Assembly (NCBI GenBank): GCA_017686895.1
Contig: GCA_017686895.1_4521.1
DNA: 64,000 nucleotides
Origin: a phage
Strand: one strand, 5' to 3'
In this document: positions 1,450 to 15,784 of the stretch, piece by piece
Layout of the letters: each line of letters opens with the position of its first letter
How positions within the stretch are numbered: the first letter of the stretch is position 1
The notes under the pieces: generated by a model
Told to the model about the DNA's origin: nothing
What the model saw: only the letters and a program-made list of their open reading frames with translations
Database searches by the model: none
Made by a program: the position numbers and the translations under genes

Positions 1450-4161
1450 ATGAAAGAATTTTACTTAACGGTTGAACAGATTGGTGATTCAATTTTTGAA
1501 CGTTACATCGATTCTAATGGCCGTGAACGTACTCGTGAAGTAGAATATAAACCATCACTGTTTGCTCATTGTCCAGAAAGTCAGGCTACGAAATATTTCG
1601 ATATCTACGGTAAGCCGTGTACTCGTAAGTTGTTCGCTAATATGCGTGATGCCTCCCAATGGATTAAACGCATGGAAGATATCGGACTTGAAGCACTTGG
1701 CATGGACGATTTCAAATTGGCGTATTTGTCTGACACTTATAACTATGAAATCAAATACGACCATACAAAAATTCGTGTGGCTAACTTCGACATCGAAGTA
1801 ACATCTCCGGATGGGTTCCCTGAGCCGTCACAAGCAAAACATCCAATTGATGCTATCACCCATTATGACTCAATTGATGACAGGTTCTACGTATTTGATC
1901 TATTGAATTCTCCATATGGTAATGTAGAAGAATGGTCTATTGAAATCGCTGCTAAGCTTCAAGAACAAGGTGGTGATGAAGTTCCATCTGAAATTATCGA
2001 TAAAATCATTTATATGCCATTCGATAATGAAAAAGAATTGTTGATGGAATATCTCAACTTCTGGCAACAGAAAACTCCTGTCATTTTGACTGGATGGAAC
2101 GTTGAGTCATTTGATATTCCATATGTGTATAACCGAATCAAGAATATTTTTGGCGAATCTACTGCGAAACGTTTATCACCACATCGTAAAACTCGTGTTA
2201 AAGTTATCGAAAACATGTATGGTTCTCGTGAAATCATTACATTGTTCGGTATCTCTGTTCTTGATTATATCGACCTTTACAAAAAATTCTCTTTCACAAA
2301 CCAACCGTCGTATTCTCTGGATTACATTTCAGAATTTGAATTGAATGTCGGTAAACTGAAATATGACGGTCCTATTTCTAAACTTCGTGAAAGTAATCAC
2401 CAACGATATATTTCTTATAACATTATCGACGTGTATCGTGTATTGCAAATTGATGCTAAACGCCAGTTCATCAACTTGAGTTTGGACATGGGTTATTATG
2501 CTAAGATACAGATTCAATCTGTGTTTAGCCCAATTAAAACATGGGATGCTATTATTTTTAATAGCCTTAAAGAGCAGAACAAGGTGATTCCACAAGGTCG
2601 TTCTCACCCGGTTCAACCTTATCCTGGCGCTTTTGTTAAGGAACCTATTCCAAATCGATACAAATATGTAATGAGTTTCGACCTTACATCTCTGTATCCA
2701 AGTATTATTCGCCAAGTGAATATTAGCCCAGAAACAATAGCAGGAACGTTTAAAGTAGCTCCATTGCATGATTATATTAACGCAATCGCTGAACGTCCTT
2801 CAGATGTGTACAGTTGCTCTCCTAACGGCATGATGTATTATAAAGACCGTGACGGTGTAGTTCCAACCGAAATCACCAAGGTCTTTAATCAACGTAAAGA
2901 ACATAAAGGTTATATGCTTGCTGCTCAACGTAACGGTGAAATAATTAAAGAGGCATTGCATAATCCTAATCTTTCTGTTGATGAACCATTAGATGTTGAT
3001 TATCGTTTCGACTTCACTGACGAGATTAAAGAAAAGATTAAAAAGTTGTCTGCTAAATCTCTTAATGAAATGTTGTTTAGAGCTCAACGTACTGAAGTTG
3101 CAGGTATGACTGCCCAAATTAACCGTAAATTGCTCATCAACTCGCTTTATGGTGCACTTGGCAACGTTTGGTTCCGTTATTACGATTTGCGTAATGCTAC
3201 TGCAATCACAACATTTGGTCAAATGGCTTTACAATGGATTGAACGTAAAGTTAATGAATATCTGAATGAAGTTTGTGGTACAGAAGGTGAAGCTTTCGTT
3301 CTTTATGGTGATACAGACTCTATTTACGTATCTGCTGATAAAATTATCGATAAGGTTGGTGAATCTAAATTCCGTGATACCAACCATTGGGTAGACTTCT
3401 TAGATAAGTTCGCACGTGAACGTATGGAACCAGCTATTGATAAAGGTTTCCGTGAAATGTGTGAATACATGAACAATAAACAACACTTAATGTTCATGGA
3501 CCGAGAAGCTATCGCTGGTCCTCCGCTTGGTTCTAAAGGTATTGGTGGATTCTGGACTGGTAAGAAACGTTATGCATTAAACGTGTGGGATATGGAAGGA
3601 ACTAGATACGCTGAGCCTAAACTCAAAATCATGGGTCTAGAGACTCAGAAATCTTCGACCCCTAAAGCAGTACAGAAAGCTCTTAAAGAATGTATTCGTC
3701 GTATGCTTCAAGAAGGTGAAGAATCATTACAAGAATATTTTAAAGAGTTTGAAAAAGAATTCCGTCAATTGAATTATATTAGCATCGCGTCGGTATCTTC
3801 TGCGAATAACATTGCTAAATATGATGTAGGTGGATTCCCTGGTCCTAAATGTCCGTTCCATATTCGTGGAATTCTGACATATAACCGAGCTATCAAAGGT
3901 AATATTGATGCTCCACAAGTTGTAGAAGGTGAAAAAGTATATGTTCTGCCTTTACGTGAAGGAAACCCATTCGGTGATAAATGTATCGCATGGCCTTCTG
4001 GTACTGAAATCACAGATTTAATTAAAGACGACGTACTTCATTGGATGGACTACACTGTTCTCCTTGAGAAGACATTTATTAAACCACTTGAAGGATTCAC
4101 ATCAGCAGCGAAACTCGATTACGAGAAGAAAGCATCTCTGTTCGATATGTTCGATTTTTGA
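1450..4161 (+). CDS. 43: DNA polymerase gp43 (family B)
   Basis: 903 aa; sequence matches recalled RB69 gp43 (MKEFYLTVEQIGDSIFERYIDSNGRERTREVEYKPSLFAHCPES..., exo motifs FDIEV and YNIIDV, YGDTDS, KKRY). Confidence 0.97.
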   Translation: MKEFYLTVEQIGDSIFERYIDSNGRERTREVEYKPSLFAHCPESQATKYFDIYGKPCTRKLFANMRDASQWIKRMEDIGLEALGMDDFKLAYLSDTYNYEIKYDHTKIRVANFDIEVTSPDGFPEPSQAKHPIDAITHYDSIDDRFYVFDLLNSPYGNVEEWSIEIAAKLQEQGGDEVPSEIIDKIIYMPFDNEKELLMEYLNFWQQKTPVILTGWNVESFDIPYVYNRIKNIFGESTAKRLSPHRKTRVKVIENMYGSREIITLFGISVLDYIDLYKKFSFTNQPSYSLDYISEFELNVGKLKYDGPISKLRESNHQRYISYNIIDVYRVLQIDAKRQFINLSLDMGYYAKIQIQSVFSPIKTWDAIIFNSLKEQNKVIPQGRSHPVQPYPGAFVKEPIPNRYKYVMSFDLTSLYPSIIRQVNISPETIAGTFKVAPLHDYINAIAERPSDVYSCSPNGMMYYKDRDGVVPTEITKVFNQRKEHKGYMLAAQRNGEIIKEALHNPNLSVDEPLDVDYRFDFTDEIKEKIKKLSAKSLNEMLFRAQRTEVAGMTAQINRKLLINSLYGALGNVWFRYYDLRNATAITTFGQMALQWIERKVNEYLNEVCGTEGEAFVLYGDTDSIYVSADKIIDKVGESKFRDTNHWVDFLDKFARERMEPAIDKGFREMCEYMNNKQHLMFMDREAIAGPPLGSKGIGGFWTGKKRYALNVWDMEGTRYAEPKLKIMGLETQKSSTPKAVQKALKECIRRMLQEGEESLQEYFKEFEKEFRQLNYISIASVSSANNIAKYDVGGFPGPKCPFHIRGILTYNRAIKGNIDAPQVVEGEKVYVLPLREGNPFGDKCIAWPSGTEITDLIKDDVLHWMDYTVLLEKTFIKPLEGFTSAAKLDYEKKASLFDMFDF

Positions 4162-4167
4162 TATAAT
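4159..4167 (+). promoter_or_regulatory. Candidate extended -10 promoter (TGaTATAAT) for the sugar cassette
   Basis: TGATATAAT overlaps the gene 43 TGA stop, 35 nt before ATG 4202; no good -35 or MotA box seen. Confidence 0.35.
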
Positions 4168-4201
4168 ACCATGGACGGTAAACTAATTAAATGAGAGAAA
4201 T

Positions 4202-4837
4202 ATGAAAACTACACCAATCACTATCGCTATTGACGCAATCGTAAAACAAGCTTCTTCTTTGGCTACTATGGCCAAAGTAATTAGTCAAAACCCTGCTCGT
4301 TATAATGCTATTCTAGAAACTCTTCGACGCCCTGGACTGAGTAATTATGAAAGCCGAGTAATTATTACAGGTGTTGGTAAGAACGCTAATATCGCAACTA
4401 AAGCTTCCGAGACTTTTGCTTCACTAGGTATTCCTAGCATGTATTTGAACACCGGGCATTATTCTCATGGCGACGCAGGGTTTATTGCACCTAATGATGT
4501 ATTAGTTCACATCAGTCGTTCTGGTAAGACTGAAGAAATGATAGGTGTTGCTAAACATCTTCGTATGATTCGTCCTCAGGTTAAACAGATTCTGTTACAT
4601 TGTAACCCTGACATTCCGCAAGAATACGAAGCTCTTTTTGATTATACGTTCTGTACAGGCATCGCGGTAGAGGTTGATGAGAATTCTCTGGCTCCGACCA
4701 TGTCCACTACATTGTTGTTAGCGCTTATCGATACGTTTGCTATCAACCTTTCGTCTGAACGTGGATTTACCTCTAATGACTTCCTTAAGTTCCACCCTGG
4801 TGGTGCACTAGGTGCCATGTTACGAGGCGAACAATGA
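4202..4837 (+). CDS. SIS-domain sugar-phosphate isomerase, arabinose-5-phosphate isomerase (KdsD/GutQ)-like
   Basis: SIS motifs VGKNANIATKASETF, HGDAGF, VLVHISRSGKTEE resemble KdsD-type API rather than GmhA. Confidence 0.7.
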   Translation: MKTTPITIAIDAIVKQASSLATMAKVISQNPARYNAILETLRRPGLSNYESRVIITGVGKNANIATKASETFASLGIPSMYLNTGHYSHGDAGFIAPNDVLVHISRSGKTEEMIGVAKHLRMIRPQVKQILLHCNPDIPQEYEALFDYTFCTGIAVEVDENSLAPTMSTTLLLALIDTFAINLSSERGFTSNDFLKFHPGGALGAMLRGEQ

Positions 4838-4977
4838 AAGCAATAACAATAGGACTTTTACTATTGATGCTTGTCATGACTATCTACTGGAGCTTAACGG
4901 CTCCAGTAATGATTCCGACTCTTATAATCGGATGGATTATGATTGGACTACAAACAAAGTATGAATGCTTTAACTAG
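4834..4977 (+). CDS. Small hydrophobic protein (47 aa), not in ORF track
   Basis: ATG overlaps the upstream TGA (ATGA coupling); translation MKAITIGLLLLMLVMTIYWSLTAPVMIPTLIIGWIMIGLQTKYECFN is almost entirely membrane-like. Confidence 0.35.
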   Translation: MKAITIGLLLLMLVMTIYWSLTAPVMIPTLIIGWIMIGLQTKYECFN

Positions 4978-5018
4978 AATAGTGTACAATACACCTACTT
5001 ACCAATGAGGACCACAAC

Positions 5019-6704
5019 ATGAAAAAAGCTGTTATTCTTGGTGCTGGACTGGCAACTCGTTTGTATCCAATAACGCACCATATTCCTAAGGTGCTTGTTA
5101 ACTATAAACAAGACACTATTCTGAGCAATTTGTATACAATTTATTCTGACCTTGGTGCAGATGAAATTATTGTAGTAGTTCATTCAAAATTTGTTGAAAC
5201 TGTTCGAGCTTATTGTGAGCAAGAAGGGTTCAATGTGACTATTCGTACAGTTGATGAAGCGTATGGTTCTGCTTATGCTCTTGCTAAATTATACAAAGAT
5301 TTAGATGGCCATAACGTAATTGTTAACTGGTGTGATATTATTCCTGATTTTGGTTCATGGTCTTGGAATGTTAACGCAATCTATGTTAAGGGTGATGAAT
5401 GTCGATATAATTTCGATGGTGAAAATATCACTAACGTAGGTTCAACAGGCGGTAATGTTGTAGGAATTTATCAGTTCAAAGACTGGGAATTCTATATGGG
5501 TTCTACTGATGAGGAAATTCATGAATACTGCAAAGGGCGTGATTTCGTAGAATTCCTTTACGGCAGTGCATTCAATAAATCAGAGCTTATGAATCTAATT
5601 GATTTAGGTGATATGCCTAAACTTGAAAAAGCTCATGAAGTTCGTGAACTTAATCGTAGTTTTAATGCAGTTGAAATTGGTGAAGAAACTGTAACTAAAT
5701 TCGCATTAACCGAACAGGGACGAGCTCTTCAGAAAGATGAGATTTCGTGGTATCTTAAAGTGAAATCAGATTCAGTTCCTCAGTTAGTTTCTGTTAATGA
5801 AAATAACTTTGAAATGGAACGCATTAAAGGTAAGCCAGCATTTGAATATATTAAATCCAAATCAAGTCTTGCTCGTCCACAAATTGTTGATGCAATTTTA
5901 GATGCACTGAAATTCAGCACAGACACTTATTTTGTAAGTCCTGAAACTGTTCGTCGTGATTTCACTAAAGAATTCTATACGAAAGTTATTGATCGTTGTG
6001 AAAGCATTCAACCATTGATTGATTCATTTGGTAAAATCACACATGTGAACTACACTAAGATTGGACGTCTGAAGCCAATGCTGAAACAAGCTTTAGAACA
6101 CCTTATTCGTTATCATAACCGTTCTCAGGGACAGTACTCTGTTATTCATGGTGACCCGAACTTCAGTAATACTATGATTACTGATAACGGCGAAGTCAAG
6201 TTTATCGACCCTCGTGGATATTTTGGCGAAACCAAGATTTACGGGCCAAAATTGTACGATGAAGCTAAAGTGCTTTATGCTGTTTCAGGTTATGATGAAT
6301 TCAATGCTAATCCGACCTGGGGACAGTTTACTATTGATGAAACAACTTGTAATGTGACTATTAACATCAATCCATTAATTTACAAATATGGAAAGATGAG
6401 TTCGTTTAACGAGTATCATCATTTGGCGGTGGCAATTATCTGGATTGCATTAGGTGGTTATTTCAAGAATAATCCACTTAAAGCGGTAGCCGCATATTAT
6501 AAAGGTATGGAACTTCTGACTAAGCAATTACGCAACATGGGCCGTGTACTTCAAGACGGCTCTATTAGTTATGACGTAGCAGAACCTGTAACGGCTACTC
6601 TGATTACAAAAAATCCTGGTAAATGGGTACTAACTGATAAAGAAACTGGTGTTTCCTATCGTCCAATCGGTGGCGATATCACTCATCAATGGGAACGAAT
6701 CTAA
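5019..6704 (+). CDS. Bifunctional sugar-1-phosphate nucleotidyltransferase / APH-like sugar kinase
   Basis: N-terminal ILGAGLATRL nucleotidyltransferase motif; C-terminal HGDPNFSN...IDPRG kinase motifs (aminoglycoside/choline kinase fold). Confidence 0.7.
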   Translation: MKKAVILGAGLATRLYPITHHIPKVLVNYKQDTILSNLYTIYSDLGADEIIVVVHSKFVETVRAYCEQEGFNVTIRTVDEAYGSAYALAKLYKDLDGHNVIVNWCDIIPDFGSWSWNVNAIYVKGDECRYNFDGENITNVGSTGGNVVGIYQFKDWEFYMGSTDEEIHEYCKGRDFVEFLYGSAFNKSELMNLIDLGDMPKLEKAHEVRELNRSFNAVEIGEETVTKFALTEQGRALQKDEISWYLKVKSDSVPQLVSVNENNFEMERIKGKPAFEYIKSKSSLARPQIVDAILDALKFSTDTYFVSPETVRRDFTKEFYTKVIDRCESIQPLIDSFGKITHVNYTKIGRLKPMLKQALEHLIRYHNRSQGQYSVIHGDPNFSNTMITDNGEVKFIDPRGYFGETKIYGPKLYDEAKVLYAVSGYDEFNANPTWGQFTIDETTCNVTININPLIYKYGKMSSFNEYHHLAVAIIWIALGGYFKNNPLKAVAAYYKGMELLTKQLRNMGRVLQDGSISYDVAEPVTATLITKNPGKWVLTDKETGVSYRPIGGDITHQWERI

Positions 6705-7090
6705 TGCACCGTGTAGAAAACATGCTTAATCTTTGTTTTGATGTCGATGATTGTATAACAGAGTGGAATAACAATCGTGATTACGTGAACTTCAAACCAG
6801 ACGTCGAAATGGTGTCTGCCATTAATGCCCTGTATGATGCAGGGCATACCATAACGCTTTACACTGCTCGTGGTATGAAGTCAGTAGGTCCTGGTCGTAT
6901 AGCAATTGACATTCTCCCAAGTCTGATTCAGAACTTGGCAAACATTGGCTTGAAGTACCATAATTTGCTAACACATAAACCAGTATATGATTGGATTATC
7001 GACGACAAAGCTATGCGTCCTGACGAATTCAAAGCTCTTATGAATAAAGGCGAATTCGAAACATTTAAATCATATAAACCGAATCTATAA
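6704..7090 (+). CDS. HAD-superfamily phosphatase-like protein
   Basis: FDVDDCIT (DxD motif I), LYTAR, K...DWIIDDK; TAATG overlap with upstream gene; track start 6689 is an alternative. Confidence 0.5.
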   Translation: MHRVENMLNLCFDVDDCITEWNNNRDYVNFKPDVEMVSAINALYDAGHTITLYTARGMKSVGPGRIAIDILPSLIQNLANIGLKYHNLLTHKPVYDWIIDDKAMRPDEFKALMNKGEFETFKSYKPNL

Positions 7091-7136
7091 TAATTTAAGT
7101 AAGACCTGCAAAAACCATCGCATCAATTAACGCGAG

Positions 7137-8306
7137 ATGCAAAAAATGAATACTTTTAAAATCGGAACGAATTTTGATTTAGCTCTTCTTGATAAAATCG
7201 TAGAGCTCAATAAAACCTATCCTAATAGCTTGATAAACGAAGTATATGGCTCTACAAGAGAAATGGCTTTTGTAGCAGCCAGACCTGATTTTAGGCTTCC
7301 TGACGTTGACAAAAAGATGTTAGAAGATTACGTTAAACGTTGTAACGAATTAGGTATTTGCTTTAACTATACACTCAACACGATAAATCCTGGTTCAAAA
7401 AGAGAACTAGTTGAGTGGAAGAAGAAAGCTATTCAGGATTATGTTCAGTATCTTTGGTCAATAGGCGTATGGCGTATTACTATCGCTAACCCTGTTGTTA
7501 TGGAAATTGTTCGTGAAGTCAATAAAGATATTGAGATTGAAGTTTCAACAATTCTACATGTCGATGCGGTAACTCAAATCAAATACTTACATGACCAATA
7601 TAACATCAAAAAGGTCTGTTGCGGAATTCATAAGAACCGTTCAGTTTCTTTCCTGAAGCGTGCAGCAGAGTTTTGCAATAAGAACAATATAATATTTGAA
7701 GTTCTTGTAAATGAGTTCTGTTCTAATGCTGGTAAAGGGTATACAACACATTGTAGTTATCGTGACTCTTGCTATATTTTCCATAGTACTGATGTTACAG
7801 CTGATGATGCTAAATCCTTAAATGGATATCCAATGCAACACTGCATTAAAGCTCGTGATACAGACCCATTTAACTGGTTGAGAACTCGTTTTGTTCGTCC
7901 TCAAGATTTGAAACTTTATAATGATATTGGTATCACTCAATTCAAAGTTTCAGGACGTACAGGTAGCACAGACTACATTTTGAAAGTTCTTGAAGCATAC
8001 GCTTCTGAAAAGTTTGAAGGTAATTTGTTAGAACTGTGGAAGCCTTTAGAGACTATTTTCACTCTTGAAAATGAGACTGAGTTTTCACATACAGTAAATA
8101 TTGAAACCTCTTTGTTAGATGGCTTTTTAGAAAAAAGGTGGTTCAGACATCCAGATTTTGATTGTGCTAATGAAATCTGTGGGTCAACGTGTACATATTG
8201 TGAAAGGTATTATAAACGTCAATTATCTAAAAACGGGTTAGCAGAAAACTCCATATCTATTATTGATATAACTAACTCTGATGACGCTTTGAGGTACCCG
8301 GAATGA
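7137..8306 (+). CDS. Cys-rich protein of unknown function; weak resemblance to peptidase U32-family TIM-barrel proteins
   Basis: 389-aa ORF in the cassette; motifs NEVYGS, FKVSGRTGSTDY and clustered Cys (CxxxxGxGxxxxC, CANEICGSTCTYC); family assignment from memory only. Confidence 0.5.
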   Translation: MQKMNTFKIGTNFDLALLDKIVELNKTYPNSLINEVYGSTREMAFVAARPDFRLPDVDKKMLEDYVKRCNELGICFNYTLNTINPGSKRELVEWKKKAIQDYVQYLWSIGVWRITIANPVVMEIVREVNKDIEIEVSTILHVDAVTQIKYLHDQYNIKKVCCGIHKNRSVSFLKRAAEFCNKNNIIFEVLVNEFCSNAGKGYTTHCSYRDSCYIFHSTDVTADDAKSLNGYPMQHCIKARDTDPFNWLRTRFVRPQDLKLYNDIGITQFKVSGRTGSTDYILKVLEAYASEKFEGNLLELWKPLETIFTLENETEFSHTVNIETSLLDGFLEKRWFRHPDFDCANEICGSTCTYCERYYKRQLSKNGLAENSISIIDITNSDDALRYPE

Positions 8307-8542
8307 TTTCTAGAAAAAGTTTTAATTATAAACTTAACGAAGAGATTTTGACTATGAAACTGAACACTAACGAACAAATTCTTAAAAAGGCCCTTATGGG
8401 CCTGTTTGAAACCAAAGCGGCTAAAGTGATTAAAGAACCTGTTCAATTGGAATACTACACTGATGCATTCCTTCATAGTGTTCTTGGAAGTATAGATTCT
8501 GAAGCTTTACGTTATATCAACATTGTCAAGAAATTCAAATAA
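8303..8542 (+). CDS. Hypothetical protein
   Basis: 79-aa ORF, ATGA overlap with upstream gene. Confidence 0.45.
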   Translation: MISRKSFNYKLNEEILTMKLNTNEQILKKALMGLFETKAAKVIKEPVQLEYYTDAFLHSVLGSIDSEALRYINIVKKFK

Positions 8543-8565
8543 GCTTTATGAATTGAGTATATAAT
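8541..8565 (+). promoter_or_regulatory. Candidate middle promoter (MotA-box-like AAGCTTTAT plus TATAAT)
   Basis: MotA-like box about 12 bp upstream of TATAAT (8560-8565), 20 nt before ATG 8585. Confidence 0.3.
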
Positions 8566-8584
8566 AAATTGTATTGAGGTAAAT

Positions 8585-9301
8585 ATGGGAAAACATAACA
8601 CAATGAAATATATCAAAGCCGCAGATTTTCAAACCGCATTTAAAGCAGTCAATCGTGAAATTTTAGAAAACCCCGAATTCGTAACTGATTCTCGTATTGG
8701 ACGTTGTAATGAAATTGGGTCTATGACAGTAGTTGTTGACACTCCATCATCATTCAAAATGACCGACCCACGTATTAACCGCATCTCTTATGAATATGCC
8801 GAAGACTTCTGGAAGTTTATGATTTCTGGTGGTACCAACGCAGAAGAAGCGTTTAAGGCATATCCTAATGTCGCTAAATTTATTTCTAAACCAAAATCAG
8901 ATGTTTTGCCGGCGAACTTCAACACTTTCTATGGTCCTCGCATTGCGGCCCAATTACCAACTCTTCTAAAAGAACTTAAAGAAAAACCTAACTCTCGAAG
9001 AGTTGTGTTCCAAATTCTAGAAAGTTCTGATCAGGCTTTGCTTGATTCGGACGAAACACTTGAATATCCATGTACTGACTCAGTAACTTATTATATTCGT
9101 GATGGTAAGCTTTATACCCACTGTCATATGCGTTCTCAGAACTGTGCTGTTGTTATGCAGTTGGATTTTTATCTCCAAGGAAAATTACTTCATTATATCG
9201 CTAACGAATGCGGTGTAGAAGTTGGTGATTATACTCATACCATGGTAAGTGCCCATGTGTTTGAACGTGATTTTGATTATGTTAAAGGATTCCTTGACTA
9301 A
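8585..9301 (+). CDS. 42: Thymidylate-synthase-fold deoxycytidylate hydroxymethylase-like enzyme (gene 42 position)
   Basis: TS-fold motifs NSRRVVFQI, YPCTDSVTYYIRDG (catalytic Cys), Asp at the pyrimidine-specificity position (QLDFY) as in dCMP hydroxymethylase; more divergent from recalled T4 gp42 than neighbouring core genes. Confidence 0.6.
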   Translation: MGKHNTMKYIKAADFQTAFKAVNREILENPEFVTDSRIGRCNEIGSMTVVVDTPSSFKMTDPRINRISYEYAEDFWKFMISGGTNAEEAFKAYPNVAKFISKPKSDVLPANFNTFYGPRIAAQLPTLLKELKEKPNSRRVVFQILESSDQALLDSDETLEYPCTDSVTYYIRDGKLYTHCHMRSQNCAVVMQLDFYLQGKLLHYIANECGVEVGDYTHTMVSAHVFERDFDYVKGFLD

Positions 9302-10200
9302 TGGCTATTTTCCGCGTACCAATCTTGAGTATGCGGTCTTATGAAACTGGACAGTATGCTATCCTTAAGGATGGCAACTTCCAACTTCATTTGCACCGTG
9401 CTAATCCAGGTGATGTGATTACATATCCACGTAATGCATCTGATATTAAAGAATGCGAACGTCTTTTCCCAGAATTTAAGTTTGTTCCATTATGGTATAA
9501 AGATAACGCGTATAACACTCGTAAATATTTCTGGTCTGAAAATGAATTTGTGGTTGATTCATTAATTGCTTATTATGATTGTGATTTTCTAATCACAGAT
9601 ATCACCGGATATGACGGCGCTTTTGATGTGGAATTCAATTTCAATATCACTGCAGACCCTAATAAACCACGTTTTTATATTGACGAATTCTTAAAAACTG
9701 ATATGTTGTCGGTTAATCGTTCACTTCAAACTACTGTGTTGAATGAACGTCAAAAAGAAGTGCTGGTTAACGCAGGTGCAGATGGTAATAAGATTATCGT
9801 AACGCAGAAAGTTATACGTCCTTCCATCATGCAGCGTCTTGTAGGTGATTTGGCTCCTATTCATCTAGATGGTATTTTTCATCCATTTCGAATTAGTGAC
9901 CCGTGCTATCGTTTTGAACAAGTGGTTGAATGTGCAATTCAATTAGGCCAACCGCTTTATATAACCGATCCAAATAATAGCTTCGACAGAAATAAGTATC
10001 CTGAAGAAGCATTGATTCGAATTTTTAAACCAACTAAAACTGAGTACTATCAAATTCTTAAAGGACGTCCGAAGATTCAATATTTCGAAAATCCTGAAGA
10101 AGTATTCCATCCAGGTCTTGGTGAGTTCATCTACTTTAATGCTTTAATTTCTTCGCCGTATAATATACCTAAATATGAAGATGTCGTAATCGAGGAATAA
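9301..10200 (+). CDS. Hypothetical protein (occupies the T4 beta-glucosyltransferase position)
   Basis: 299-aa ORF, TAATG coupled to the hydroxymethylase gene; no recognisable motif. Confidence 0.55.
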   Translation: MAIFRVPILSMRSYETGQYAILKDGNFQLHLHRANPGDVITYPRNASDIKECERLFPEFKFVPLWYKDNAYNTRKYFWSENEFVVDSLIAYYDCDFLITDITGYDGAFDVEFNFNITADPNKPRFYIDEFLKTDMLSVNRSLQTTVLNERQKEVLVNAGADGNKIIVTQKVIRPSIMQRLVGDLAPIHLDGIFHPFRISDPCYRFEQVVECAIQLGQPLYITDPNNSFDRNKYPEEALIRIFKPTKTEYYQILKGRPKIQYFENPEEVFHPGLGEFIYFNALISSPYNIPKYEDVVIEE

Positions 10201-10201
10201 A

Positions 10202-10750
10202 ATGGCTAAAATTATTTTAGTAGATGGCCCGGATAATGCTGGTAAAACAACTTTCATTAATGACATAATGGAAATTAGTGAAAGATATGTAAAGATTGAT
10301 TTCCCTAAACGAACAGTTGATGGACGTTTCGATGTTAAGTCTCGAAATGAAGTTGGCTGTTTCGAAACTATGTTGAATTATTTAGACCCTACTAAGATTT
10401 ATCTATTAGACCGTGGATATATTAGTAACTGGGTTTATGGACGTATTCGACAAGATGCGGACTCGGTTCTTGACGTTTATGAACAGGATTATGTTCGTCT
10501 TTGCCAAAACCATGATGTGTTCACAATTATTTTAACACGTAACGAAATGACTGAAAGTTTTGAAGACGACCTTATTACTTTGTCTTCATTCGGTTTTAAT
10601 ACAGTAATTTCACATTTTGAAGAGTTTGCAATTCATAACGAAATCCAAACGTATCAATTACTTAATCATGATGGTGCTAACAAAGTTATAGGATTTAATG
10701 CAAGCGAACGTAATAATTTGATTACAGAAATCATCAAATGGGCTCGTTAA
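10202..10750 (+). CDS. P-loop NTPase, nucleotide/nucleoside kinase-like
   Basis: Walker A GPDNAGKTT near N-terminus; 182 aa. Confidence 0.55.
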   Translation: MAKIILVDGPDNAGKTTFINDIMEISERYVKIDFPKRTVDGRFDVKSRNEVGCFETMLNYLDPTKIYLLDRGYISNWVYGRIRQDADSVLDVYEQDYVRLCQNHDVFTIILTRNEMTESFEDDLITLSSFGFNTVISHFEEFAIHNEIQTYQLLNHDGANKVIGFNASERNNLITEIIKWAR

Positions 10751-15105: not shown

Positions 15106-15474
15106 ATGAAAAAATTAATCGCTTTAGCAATGGTATTTGGATTAACCGGATGTGGTGCCCATGGCTTTATCCCTAATAACGTCGGCCAATTGATTTACAA
15201 TCCGAATGTTAAACAGTACGACCAACCTAAAGTTGAAGTGGAAGACCCGGTTACTGTAGGTAATCGAATGATTCAAGCTGATGCCCATGCTCAACGTTAT
15301 CGTGACTCTGATACCGTAGCATTGTCAAAAGAACAACGCGTTAAAGAACATTGTCTACAGGCTACTGAAATCGCATTCATTCGCTATGTTGAAACAACTG
15401 GTAAAGAGCCTACCCAGAAACAAATCGCGAATAACTACGTCCAGTGTATTGAACGTTTAAACAAATTTAATTAA
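15106..15474 (+). CDS. Putative lipoprotein
   Basis: Signal peptide with lipobox LTGC (MKKLIALAMVFGLTGCG). Confidence 0.6.
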   Translation: MKKLIALAMVFGLTGCGAHGFIPNNVGQLIYNPNVKQYDQPKVEVEDPVTVGNRMIQADAHAQRYRDSDTVALSKEQRVKEHCLQATEIAFIRYVETTGKEPTQKQIANNYVQCIERLNKFN

Positions 15475-15535
15475 TTGGTTTACACCAAAGTTAAAATAAG
15501 ATACTATAAACATAACAAATCAAGAGGAAATTAAC

Positions 15536-15784
15536 ATGGAATTATTCGTAGCTAGTTCAGTAGCAGTTTTAATCGCAGGTATTGGTTCAATCATCATTTA
15601 CATGTTGCCTTGGGTAATCGCACTTATTCGTGGCACAAAAAGCACAACAGCAATCTTCTTTGTATCTTTACTCTTTAACTGGACGATGGTTGGTTGGATT
15701 GGAACTTTAATTTGGTCTATCGTTGCCGAAAAGAAATCTGCTCAGCAGCCTCAACAAGTAATTATTATTCGCGAAAAAGAATAA
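15536..15784 (+). CDS. Superinfection-immunity (Imm)-family small membrane protein
   Basis: YMLPWVIALIRG...NWTMVGWIGTLIWSI matches the Imm-family signature as I recall it. Confidence 0.55.
   Translation: MELFVASSVAVLIAGIGSIIIYMLPWVIALIRGTKSTTAIFFVSLLFNWTMVGWIGTLIWSIVAEKKSAQQPQQVIIIREKE

Follow-up and report, generated by a model that had tools for sequence, protein, structure and literature searches.

The closest described counterparts of the locus analysed here are the DNA hypermodification clusters of phages RB69 (gp45-gp55), HY126 (the Afh system) and DLP3 (gp76-gp83). Arabinose was detected in RB69 DNA by Thomas et al. in 2018, and ORF053c and ORF052c, together one 561-residue gene, were proposed to act with ORF055c in UDP-arabinose synthesis (PMC6024577). 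Lee et al. (NAR 2026; PMC13326640) placed RB69 gp55, gp52:53 and gp51 in a UDP-arabinose route, which was transferred to RB69 in that paper from HY126, whose AfhE and AfhF were, as related there, assayed biochemically by He et al. (Nat Chem Biol 2026). We analysed a 64,000-nucleotide (nt) stretch of phage DNA (GenBank assembly GCA_017686895.1, contig GCA_017686895.1_4521.1), hereafter the window, which is a T-even-type genome of the RB69 group (Mosigvirus). Between gene 43 and a thymidylate synthase (TS) homologue it carries a cassette that an original prediction, made from the sequence letters, had read as four genes producing an activated arabinose donor. The region is in all likelihood the promoter-proximal half of the known arabinosyl-5-hydroxycytosine hypermodification module of RB69-type phages, covering sugar donor and acceptor. 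The donor route is already characterised and published (2018-2026), and the cassette finding as such adds nothing new. The fourth gene is a different matter: it encodes a peptidase-U32-family Fe-S protein for which the sugar route has no evident step, and not a further part of the donor cassette.

The characterised U32 enzymes are O2-independent hydroxylases that depend on iron-sulfur (Fe-S) clusters and on prephenate, and two of them act at C5 of a pyrimidine (PMC5727448, PMC6599085, PMC6747719, PMC10990095). RlhA is responsible for 5-hydroxycytidine (ho5C) at position 2501 of 23S rRNA (PMC5727448), TrhP for 5-hydroxyuridine (ho5U) at position 34 of tRNA (PMC6599085), and UbiU-UbiV function in anaerobic ubiquinone synthesis (PMC6747719, PMC10990095). 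The oxygen that UbiU-V introduce has been shown to come from prephenate; as of the same 2024 PNAS paper, the in vitro reconstitution of a U32 hydroxylase had not been achieved (PMC10990095).

The protein encoded by the fourth gene matches Pfam U32 above the gathering score, and its confidently predicted model is a TIM-barrel and most closely resembles the one U32 protein with a solved structure. A plain phmmer search against PDB sequences returned nothing at E<=1, and hhalign comparisons of the phage family profile with single E. coli paralogues were weak (E 0.0025-0.007, low probability), so the assignment to the family rests on Pfam, the fold search and the residue alignment. Identity to the four E. 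coli paralogues is ~19%. Residues E188, C206 and C212 of the phage protein align with E162, C170 and C177 of TrhP, all three essential in that enzyme (PMC6599085); among 56 phage U32 family members the two cysteines are invariant and the glutamate nearly so. Similarly, C206, C212 and C236 align with the Fe-S ligands C169, C176 and C193 of UbiU (PMC6747719). Ten cysteines are invariant in the phage family, including those of a C-terminal CX4CX3CX2C. The U32 domain, the conserved Glu and three aligned Fe-S ligands are shared with TrhP, RlhA and UbiU-UbiV, whereas the phage protein has a different Cys spacing, the extra CX4CX3CX2C, no RNA-binding or SCP2-partner context and a proposed substrate that would be a deoxynucleotide or DNA. 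In our reading the gene does not encode a sugar enzyme. Our preferred proposal for its product, which we hold at about even odds, is a putative [4Fe-4S] U32 hydroxylase that would use prephenate as oxygen donor and act at pyrimidine C5 independently of O2.

T-even phages encode tRNAs and RNA-modifying functions, a setting in which U32 could hydroxylate host or phage RNA (tRNA U34 or 23S rRNA C2501) and tune translation, its place in the cluster being incidental. This would agree with the RNA targets of both characterised pyrimidine-hydroxylating U32 enzymes (PMC5727448, PMC6599085). However, the C-terminal domains of TrhP and RlhA are missing from the phage protein, and unrelated lineages repeatedly place U32 by DNA glycosyltransferases, nucleotide kinases, MazG/dCTPase-like genes, dCMP deaminase and dUTPase/DCD. 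We consider such an RNA target very unlikely.

A pyrimidine hydroxylase dependent on prephenate is suggested by the genes that accompany U32 together with the loci that lack a TS-type hydroxylase. Beyond 16 T4-like loci, 38 non-T4 ones came from a large-database search and from scanning viral contigs, 54 in all. Neighbours were counted within 10 kb of U32 by unbiased clustering of the nearby open reading frames (ORFs), followed by hidden Markov model (HMM) searches. A chorismate mutase and/or a 3-deoxy-D-arabino-heptulosonate 7-phosphate (DAHP) synthase lies beside U32 in 24/54 loci, and in eight the start of this prephenate-route gene overlaps the U32 stop. Chorismate mutase (Pfam CM_2, 2e-10 to 5e-20) is the second-largest family of U32 neighbours that has no member in the window. 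It follows U32 in 13/16 T4-like loci (78-132 amino acids (aa), with overlap of the U32 stop in seven) and stands immediately 3' of U32 in six huge-phage loci. A fusion of DAHP synthase and chorismate mutase is located one gene from U32 in three loci, and two loci have DAHP synthase directly 3' of U32, one of them overlapping its stop. Six of the eight catalytic residues of E. coli chorismate mutase (R11, R28, K39, E52, S84 and Q88) are retained in the phage enzymes. The U32-linked chorismate mutase accounts for 54 records in the phage collection, some already named as such, and was within ~1.1 kb of the U32 gene in 7/7 phages whose coordinates were checked. The genetic dependence of TrhP, RlhA and UbiU-UbiV on chorismate mutase and prephenate is in this way mirrored beside U32 in the relatives of the window. 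The DAHP_synth_1 neighbour was also considered as a 3-deoxy-D-manno-octulosonate 8-phosphate (KDO8P) synthase, which would tie U32 to arabinose-5-phosphate (Ara5P). This was rejected, as DAHP synthase models score 3e-70 (NCBIfam) against 3e-17 for KDO8P synthase and three of the genes are fused to chorismate mutase.

Most of the non-T4 U32 relatives are 44-57% identical, with three distant ones at ~25%. A GT299-like glycosyltransferase was detected near U32 in 16/38 of these loci, the nucleotidyltransferase/kinase (NT/kinase) also in 16/38, the SIS isomerase in 9/38, the HAD phosphatase in 1/38, and a TS of the 5-hydroxy-dCMP (5hodCMP) synthase type in 0/38. GT299 is the family most often linked to U32 (39/54 loci by clustering). 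A marginal TS match in locus L025 was discarded as a hydroxylase, since it is a canonical ThyA retaining D169, N177 and L143. In seven non-T4 loci U32 adjoins a Tmk-like kinase and a GT299-like transferase without sugar-activation genes, some having a MazG-like gene as well; the arrangement is that of kinase, transferase and hydroxylase in RB69, except that U32 takes the place of the hydroxylase. The related Tmk-like family of the non-T4 loci matches Pfam Thymidylate_kin at 2e-8. Elsewhere U32 is near a MazG/dCTPase-like gene, dCMP deaminase, uracil-DNA glycosylase (UDG), dUTPase/DCD, a TAGT-like DNA glycosyltransferase or UDP-galactopyranose mutase.

On the flanks of U32, L008 and L031 carry genes for a Tmk-like kinase, a GT299-like transferase, a TAGT-like DNA glycosyltransferase, dUTPase/DCD and UDP-galactopyranose mutase. 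This sugar toolkit resembles that of Rhizobium phage RL38J1, which has glycosylated 5-hydroxycytosine and a TS-type synthase in the place of U32. In L005 and L007, huge phages with a Pol III-alpha-type polymerase, U32 directly follows dCMP deaminase and lies near UDG and Tmk-like genes, because of which the substrate in these phages could be a uracil nucleotide. Finally, a cluster of ~160-220 aa proteins without Pfam match (c19) occupies a place at or near the HAD phosphatase position, between the NT/kinase gene and U32, in non-T4 loci that have no HAD homologue (L032, L033, L035-L037, L040, L041, L043, L045-L047, L049, L050 and L052), and may be a non-homologous replacement phosphatase.

Among sequenced phages U32 is found in 222 records, every one with at least 80% identity, from phages of Escherichia, Klebsiella, Serratia, Proteus, Yersinia, Edwardsiella and Shewanella. 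The bifunctional sugar enzyme has 374 records, reaching down to 42-57% identity; 57 of them are from phages of Acinetobacter, a strict aerobe that is not among the genera listed for U32. U32 behaves as a discrete insert: it is lacking from Acinetobacter phage DLP1 and Dhakavirus JS98, where the TS or kinase genes directly adjoin the HAD gene. It is also the most conserved gene of the module, with a median identity of 85% against 66-72% for the sugar enzymes (Table 1).

These distributions bear on whether U32 belongs to the sugar branch after all, in which case it might reduce, epimerise or otherwise tailor a pentose or nucleotide sugar. The gene lies directly 3' of the HAD gene inside the cassette, the secondary structural matches of its TIM-barrel are to methylenetetrahydrofolate reductase (MTHFR), aldolases and sugar-phosphate enzymes, and NT/kinase accompanies it in 16/38 non-T4 loci. 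Published labels also point this way, namely 'sugar or heterocycle reductase' (PMC13326640) and 'epimerase' in the cluster (Durham-collection paper). Still, the tested route to UDP-arabinofuranose (UDP-Araf), as described for HY126 in PMC13326640, is complete without U32. The Acinetobacter and Dhakavirus phages carry the sugar genes and no U32, and the seven loci with U32 and a glycosyltransferase have no sugar-activation genes. Moreover, the U32 proteins of RB69, which uses arabinose, and of Thanatos, for which a deoxypentose is reported, are 81-82% identical, and the linkage to chorismate mutase and DAHP synthase is left unexplained. A role on the sugar is thus unlikely in our judgement.

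The TS homologue downstream binds flavin, needs it in reduced form and takes its oxygen from O2 (PMC13326640). Since the Fe-S clusters of U32 proteins are thought to pass electrons (PMC10990095) and the two genes are at most about 0.7 kb apart in 16/16 T4-like loci, U32 could be an electron-transfer or flavin-reducing helper of this enzyme. But RB69 gp48 by itself produces 5-hydroxydeoxycytidine (5hodC) in E. coli (PMC13326640), the TS-type enzyme works without U32 in Acinetobacter phages and Dhakaviruses, and the 38 non-T4 loci have U32 with no enzyme of this type within 10 kb. The linkage to prephenate enzymes would again be unaccounted for, and we regard a helper function as quite unlikely. 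A protease, like each of the sugar-tailoring, redox-helper and RNA-hydroxylase readings, leaves either the chorismate mutase/DAHP synthase linkage or the loci without TS unexplained.

We return to the proposed prephenate-dependent hydroxylase. With confidence that is neither above nor below even, we suggest that U32 defines a phage subfamily of pyrimidine-nucleotide C5-hydroxylases that depend on prephenate and work without O2. U32 would hydroxylate C5 of a pyrimidine nucleotide without O2, in parallel to the TrhO/TrhP and UbiIHF/UbiUV pairs. During anoxic infection, enteric T4-like phages would use it as a backup for the O2-dependent, TS-fold 5-hydroxy-dCMP synthase, and many uncultivated phages would have no other hydroxylase to feed their glycosylated hydroxypyrimidine DNA. 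A phage-encoded chorismate mutase and/or DAHP synthase would secure the oxygen donor, prephenate; in the window, in HY126 and in Klebsiella phage Marfa, it would be supplied by PheA and TyrA of the host. T-even phages already have such an O2-dependent and O2-independent pair for one step in NrdAB and NrdDG. As in TrhO/TrhP and UbiI-H-F/UbiU-V, an O2-using enzyme and a candidate O2-independent one appear side by side, here in phages of facultative anaerobes. Acinetobacter phages have the O2-using enzyme alone and many uncultivated phages showed U32 alone. Unlike in those systems, the redundancy of the phage pair is inferred, and the Dhakaviruses of E. coli are without U32.

Several observations weigh against this proposal. 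The Cys spacing of the phage protein, C-X5-C-X23-C, departs from the canonical CX6CX15CX3/4C (CX6CX16CX38C in UbiU), and three of the four ligands are aligned. The window encodes no chorismate mutase, and an HMM of the phage chorismate mutases gives the 79-aa ORF that follows U32 no match even at E<50. The prephenate link therefore reaches the window by orthology only; HY126 and Marfa likewise have no chorismate mutase. JS98 and other Dhakaviruses, which are phages of E. coli, have the module without U32, and U32 is therefore not required by every enteric phage. The 5hodCMP-synthase-type TS found to be absent from the 38 non-T4 loci was looked for only up to 10 kb from U32, and most of the contigs are incomplete. 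As to the substrate, one may guess at dCMP, dUMP, a dNTP or DNA, dCMP being the simplest choice. Finally, Lee et al. label the RB69 orthologue 'sugar or heterocycle reductase', as noted above; this table entry is all it receives, and their text has no mention of gp50, U32, chorismate, prephenate or iron-sulfur (PMC13326640).

The lead on U32 appears to be new. No connection of U32 and chorismate mutase or DAHP synthase with DNA hypermodification was found in the literature searched, which did not cover He et al. 2026 and Mahler et al. 2025. In December 2025, the authors of a paper on Shewanella phage Thanatos, whose genome includes the same U32 gene, stated that they had no hypothesis on the origin of the hydroxyl. 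If the proposal is true, it would explain how these phages replicate without oxygen, given that their only known 5-hydroxycytosine route needs O2, yet their hosts live in the gut and every cytosine is replaced. Full cytosine replacement would become possible in anoxic hosts, prephenate-dependent hydroxylation would extend beyond RNA and quinones to DNA precursors, and the presence of chorismate mutase and DAHP synthase genes in phages would be explained. With a small soluble nucleotide as substrate, the in vitro reconstitution of a U32 hydroxylase could also become feasible.

Table 1. Features of the module in the window. Median identities to the window proteins are across 14 T4-like loci outside Mosigvirus.
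Feature	Coordinates	Strand	Size (aa)	Assignment or predicted activity	Median identity
gp43 DNA polymerase	1450-4161				71%
Single-domain SIS arabinose-5-phosphate isomerase, RB69 ORF055c orthologue	4202-4837	+	211	Predicted Ru5P <-> D-Ara5P	72%
Strongly hydrophobic ORF, RB69 orf054c orthologue	4834-4977	+	47	Start overlaps SIS stop (ATGA)	
Bifunctional NT/kinase, HY126 AfhE / RB69 ORF53_52c orthologue	5019-6704	+	561	Nucleotidyltransferase N-terminal, kinase C-terminal	66%
HAD-type Mg-dependent phosphatase, HY126 AfhF / RB69 ORF051c orthologue	6704-7090	+	128	Predicted Ara-1,5-P2 -> Ara1P	67%
Peptidase-U32-family Fe-S protein, RB69 ORF050c	7137-8306	+	389	Pfam U32, fold search, residue alignment	85%
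79-aa ORF	8303-8542	+	79	ATGA overlap with U32 stop; slot of chorismate mutase in most related genera	
TS-fold flavin/O2-dependent 5-hydroxy-dCMP synthase, RB69 gp48 orthologue	8585-9301	+		PDB 9iqc/9ir2 3e-160	80%
GT-B-like DNA arabinosyltransferase 1 (GT299), RB69 gp46:47 orthologue	9301-10200	+	299	Assigned from PMC13326640 Table 1	67%
Thymidylate-kinase-like P-loop nucleotide kinase (Tmk-like), RB69 gp45 orthologue	10202-10750	+	182	PMC13326640 Table 1; GPDNAGKT P-loop	60%
UvsX					88%

Compared with the Afh, RB69 and DLP3 clusters, the window has the same genes in the same order; for the first three genes, product (UDP-D-arabinofuranose) and acceptor (5-hydroxycytosine in DNA) are those of HY126 and RB69, and nothing substantive differs. 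Proteins are 96-100% identical to those of HY126, and U32 is ~99% identical to that of RB69. Both the gene of 561 aa and that of the glycosyltransferase are intact in the window, whereas in the GenBank entry for RB69 each is split by a sequencing error. All four ORFs of the original prediction were recovered where it had put them (Table 1), and domain searches placed its SIS, NTP_transferase, APH and HAD proteins in the families claimed, the APH half with weak Pfam matches.

The motifs that had suggested a KdsD/GutQ-type isomerase are present in the first protein (VGKNANIATK at nt 4373-4402, HGDAGF at 4466-4483 and ISRSGKTEE at 4511-4537), and the call was borne out by Pfam (SIS, 8e-10), NCBIfam (KpsF/GutQ TIGR00393, 9e-32; KdsD, 4e-30) and the PDB arabinose-5-phosphate isomerases 3etn (1e-24) and 2xhz (2e-18), with a further match to 5uqi (2e-22). 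Its identity to the HY126 protein is 97.6%. SIS fold and motifs are shared with KdsD, GutQ and KpsF, whereas the tandem CBS domains of KdsD/GutQ were not found in the 211 residues and the profile matches span the first ~200 of 321-328 positions; the protein is SIS-only, like the single-domain 3etn and 5uqi, and its Ara5P would go to a nucleotide sugar for DNA and not to Kdo. From homology and pathway context, we infer that it interconverts ribulose-5-phosphate (Ru5P) and Ara5P.

The second gene had been predicted to fuse a sugar-1-phosphate nucleotidyltransferase to an APH/choline-kinase-like domain, and this holds. The N-terminus, with ILGAGLATRL at 5034-5063 (GAGLATRL motif), matches Pfam NTP_transferase (4e-9, residues 3-99) and LicC (PDB 1jyk, 3e-5). 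The C-terminal half has HxDxxxxN (HGDPNFSN, aa 377-384, nt 6147-6170) and a downstream D (IDPRG, aa 396-400, nt 6204-6218). Because Pfam matches to the kinase half are weak (Fructosamin_kin 4e-3, EcKL 7e-3), the kinase assignment rests on these motifs and on the HY126 orthologue AfhE, which is 96.4% identical over 561 aa and has the same cluster position. The third gene, coupled to the second by the TAATG overlap that had been predicted (6702-6706), encodes a protein with the expected DxD motif (FDVDDC). Its assignment as a HAD phosphatase stands on TIGR01689 (4e-13), PDB 1xpj (5e-10) and 9iqw (2e-87, identical over all 128 residues) and on 100% identity to AfhF; Pfam gave no match. A longer start at 6689 is possible, and the HY126 annotation uses the short one.

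That these three genes jointly yield an NDP-arabinose for DNA modification agrees with the work on the HY126 orthologues, as cited in PMC13326640. The order of steps had to be revised: the original prediction ran through free arabinose, whereas in the HY126 work related in that paper the kinase acts ahead of the phosphatase. AfhE is there a D-arabinose-5-phosphate kinase giving arabinose-1,5-bisphosphate (Ara-1,5-P2), which AfhF dephosphorylates, and the tested order is Ru5P, Ara5P, Ara-1,5-P2, arabinose-1-phosphate (Ara1P) and UDP-Araf, with no free arabinose (PMC13326640). In the window, the SIS protein would convert Ru5P to D-Ara5P, the kinase half of the 561-aa protein would phosphorylate Ara5P at C1, the HAD phosphatase would remove the 5-phosphate from the resulting bisphosphate, and the nucleotidyltransferase half would join Ara1P and UTP to UDP-D-arabinofuranose. 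The opposite order, in which Ara5P is dephosphorylated to free arabinose before phosphorylation at C1, matches the functions in Table 1 of Lee et al., still worded dephosphorylation first as in the original prediction (PMC13326640), and APH/choline-kinase-like enzymes commonly use free hydroxyl compounds. It is improbable given the substrates that the text of the same paper reports for AfhE and AfhF, and given that the closest structural analogue it cites for the HAD enzyme is heptose-1,7-bisphosphate 7-phosphatase (PMC13326640).

The acceptor side also differs from what had been predicted. The sugar sits on the C5 ether oxygen of 5-hydroxycytosine and not on 5-hydroxymethylcytosine (hmC), and the downstream "hydroxymethylase" is the flavin/O2-dependent 5-hydroxy-dCMP synthase. 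The TS homologue is almost identical to the PDB structures 9iqc, 9ir2 and 9iqu (3e-160) and has RSQN (D169N), QLDF (N177D) and LEYPC (L143E; E. coli ThyA numbering), the signature of 5-hydroxy-dCMP synthases (PMC13326640). It would make 5-hydroxy-dCMP with O2; kinases and polymerase would then carry this into DNA, which arabinosyltransferases would decorate. For the arabinosyltransferase 1 protein, Pfam, NCBIfam and PDB sequence searches gave no match. The logic is that of hmC glucosylation in T4 (gp56, gp42, gp1 and alpha/beta-gt), in which dCMP is modified, phosphorylated and incorporated and the DNA is glycosylated, and the neighbourhood between gene 43 and uvsX is the same. In contrast to T4, a hydroxyl replaces the hydroxymethyl, arabinofuranose replaces glucose, and the phage makes its own sugar donor. 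The arabinose-donor cassette belongs to a DNA hypermodification that counters restriction.

The gene order is gp44 (C-terminal part), gp62, regA, gp43, the cassette, the TS homologue, the 299-aa gene, the 182-aa P-loop kinase and uvsX. Positions 4100-8600 are 99.4% identical to Escherichia phage TH12 and match ~150 other phage records at 97-99% identity; 155 phage records contain at least 80% of this stretch. Base composition of the cassette (GC 0.35-0.41) is not distinct from that of its flanks, and the idea of a recent foreign origin was dropped, as composition gives no such sign.

Four genes had been said to fill the slot where T4 carries imm. The four are there, but the count was incomplete, since the stretch has six ORFs. 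Of the two small ones, the 47-aa ORF has an annotated counterpart in HY126 (98% identical), and the annotation of JS98 includes an orf054c-like ORF. The 79-aa ORF is frameshifted in HY126 by two 1-nt insertions and absent in Marfa, and is probably dispensable; it was rejected as a degenerate chorismate mutase, having no Pfam match and not being alignable to the family. T4 does have imm.1 and imm between genes 43 and 42, as had been stated, but the window keeps homologues of both (32% and 64% identity to T4, respectively) at 15112-15781 on the + strand, ~7 kb downstream of the T4 slot. The cassette has displaced imm.1 and imm without replacing them.

A scan with generic sigma-70 promoter and terminator models gave no enrichment over shuffled sequence. 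Two sites fit the T4 pattern of MotA-dependent middle promoters: AATGCTTTA followed by 12 nt and TACAAT at 4964-4995, upstream of the 561-aa gene, and AATGCTTTA followed by 12 nt and TATAAT at 10138-10170, upstream of the Tmk-like kinase gene. In addition, GAGTATATAATA at 8556-8567, just 5' of the TS-type gene, does not differ between the window, HY126, phiE142 and Klebsiella phage Marfa, a phage that is otherwise divergent, and may be a promoter element.

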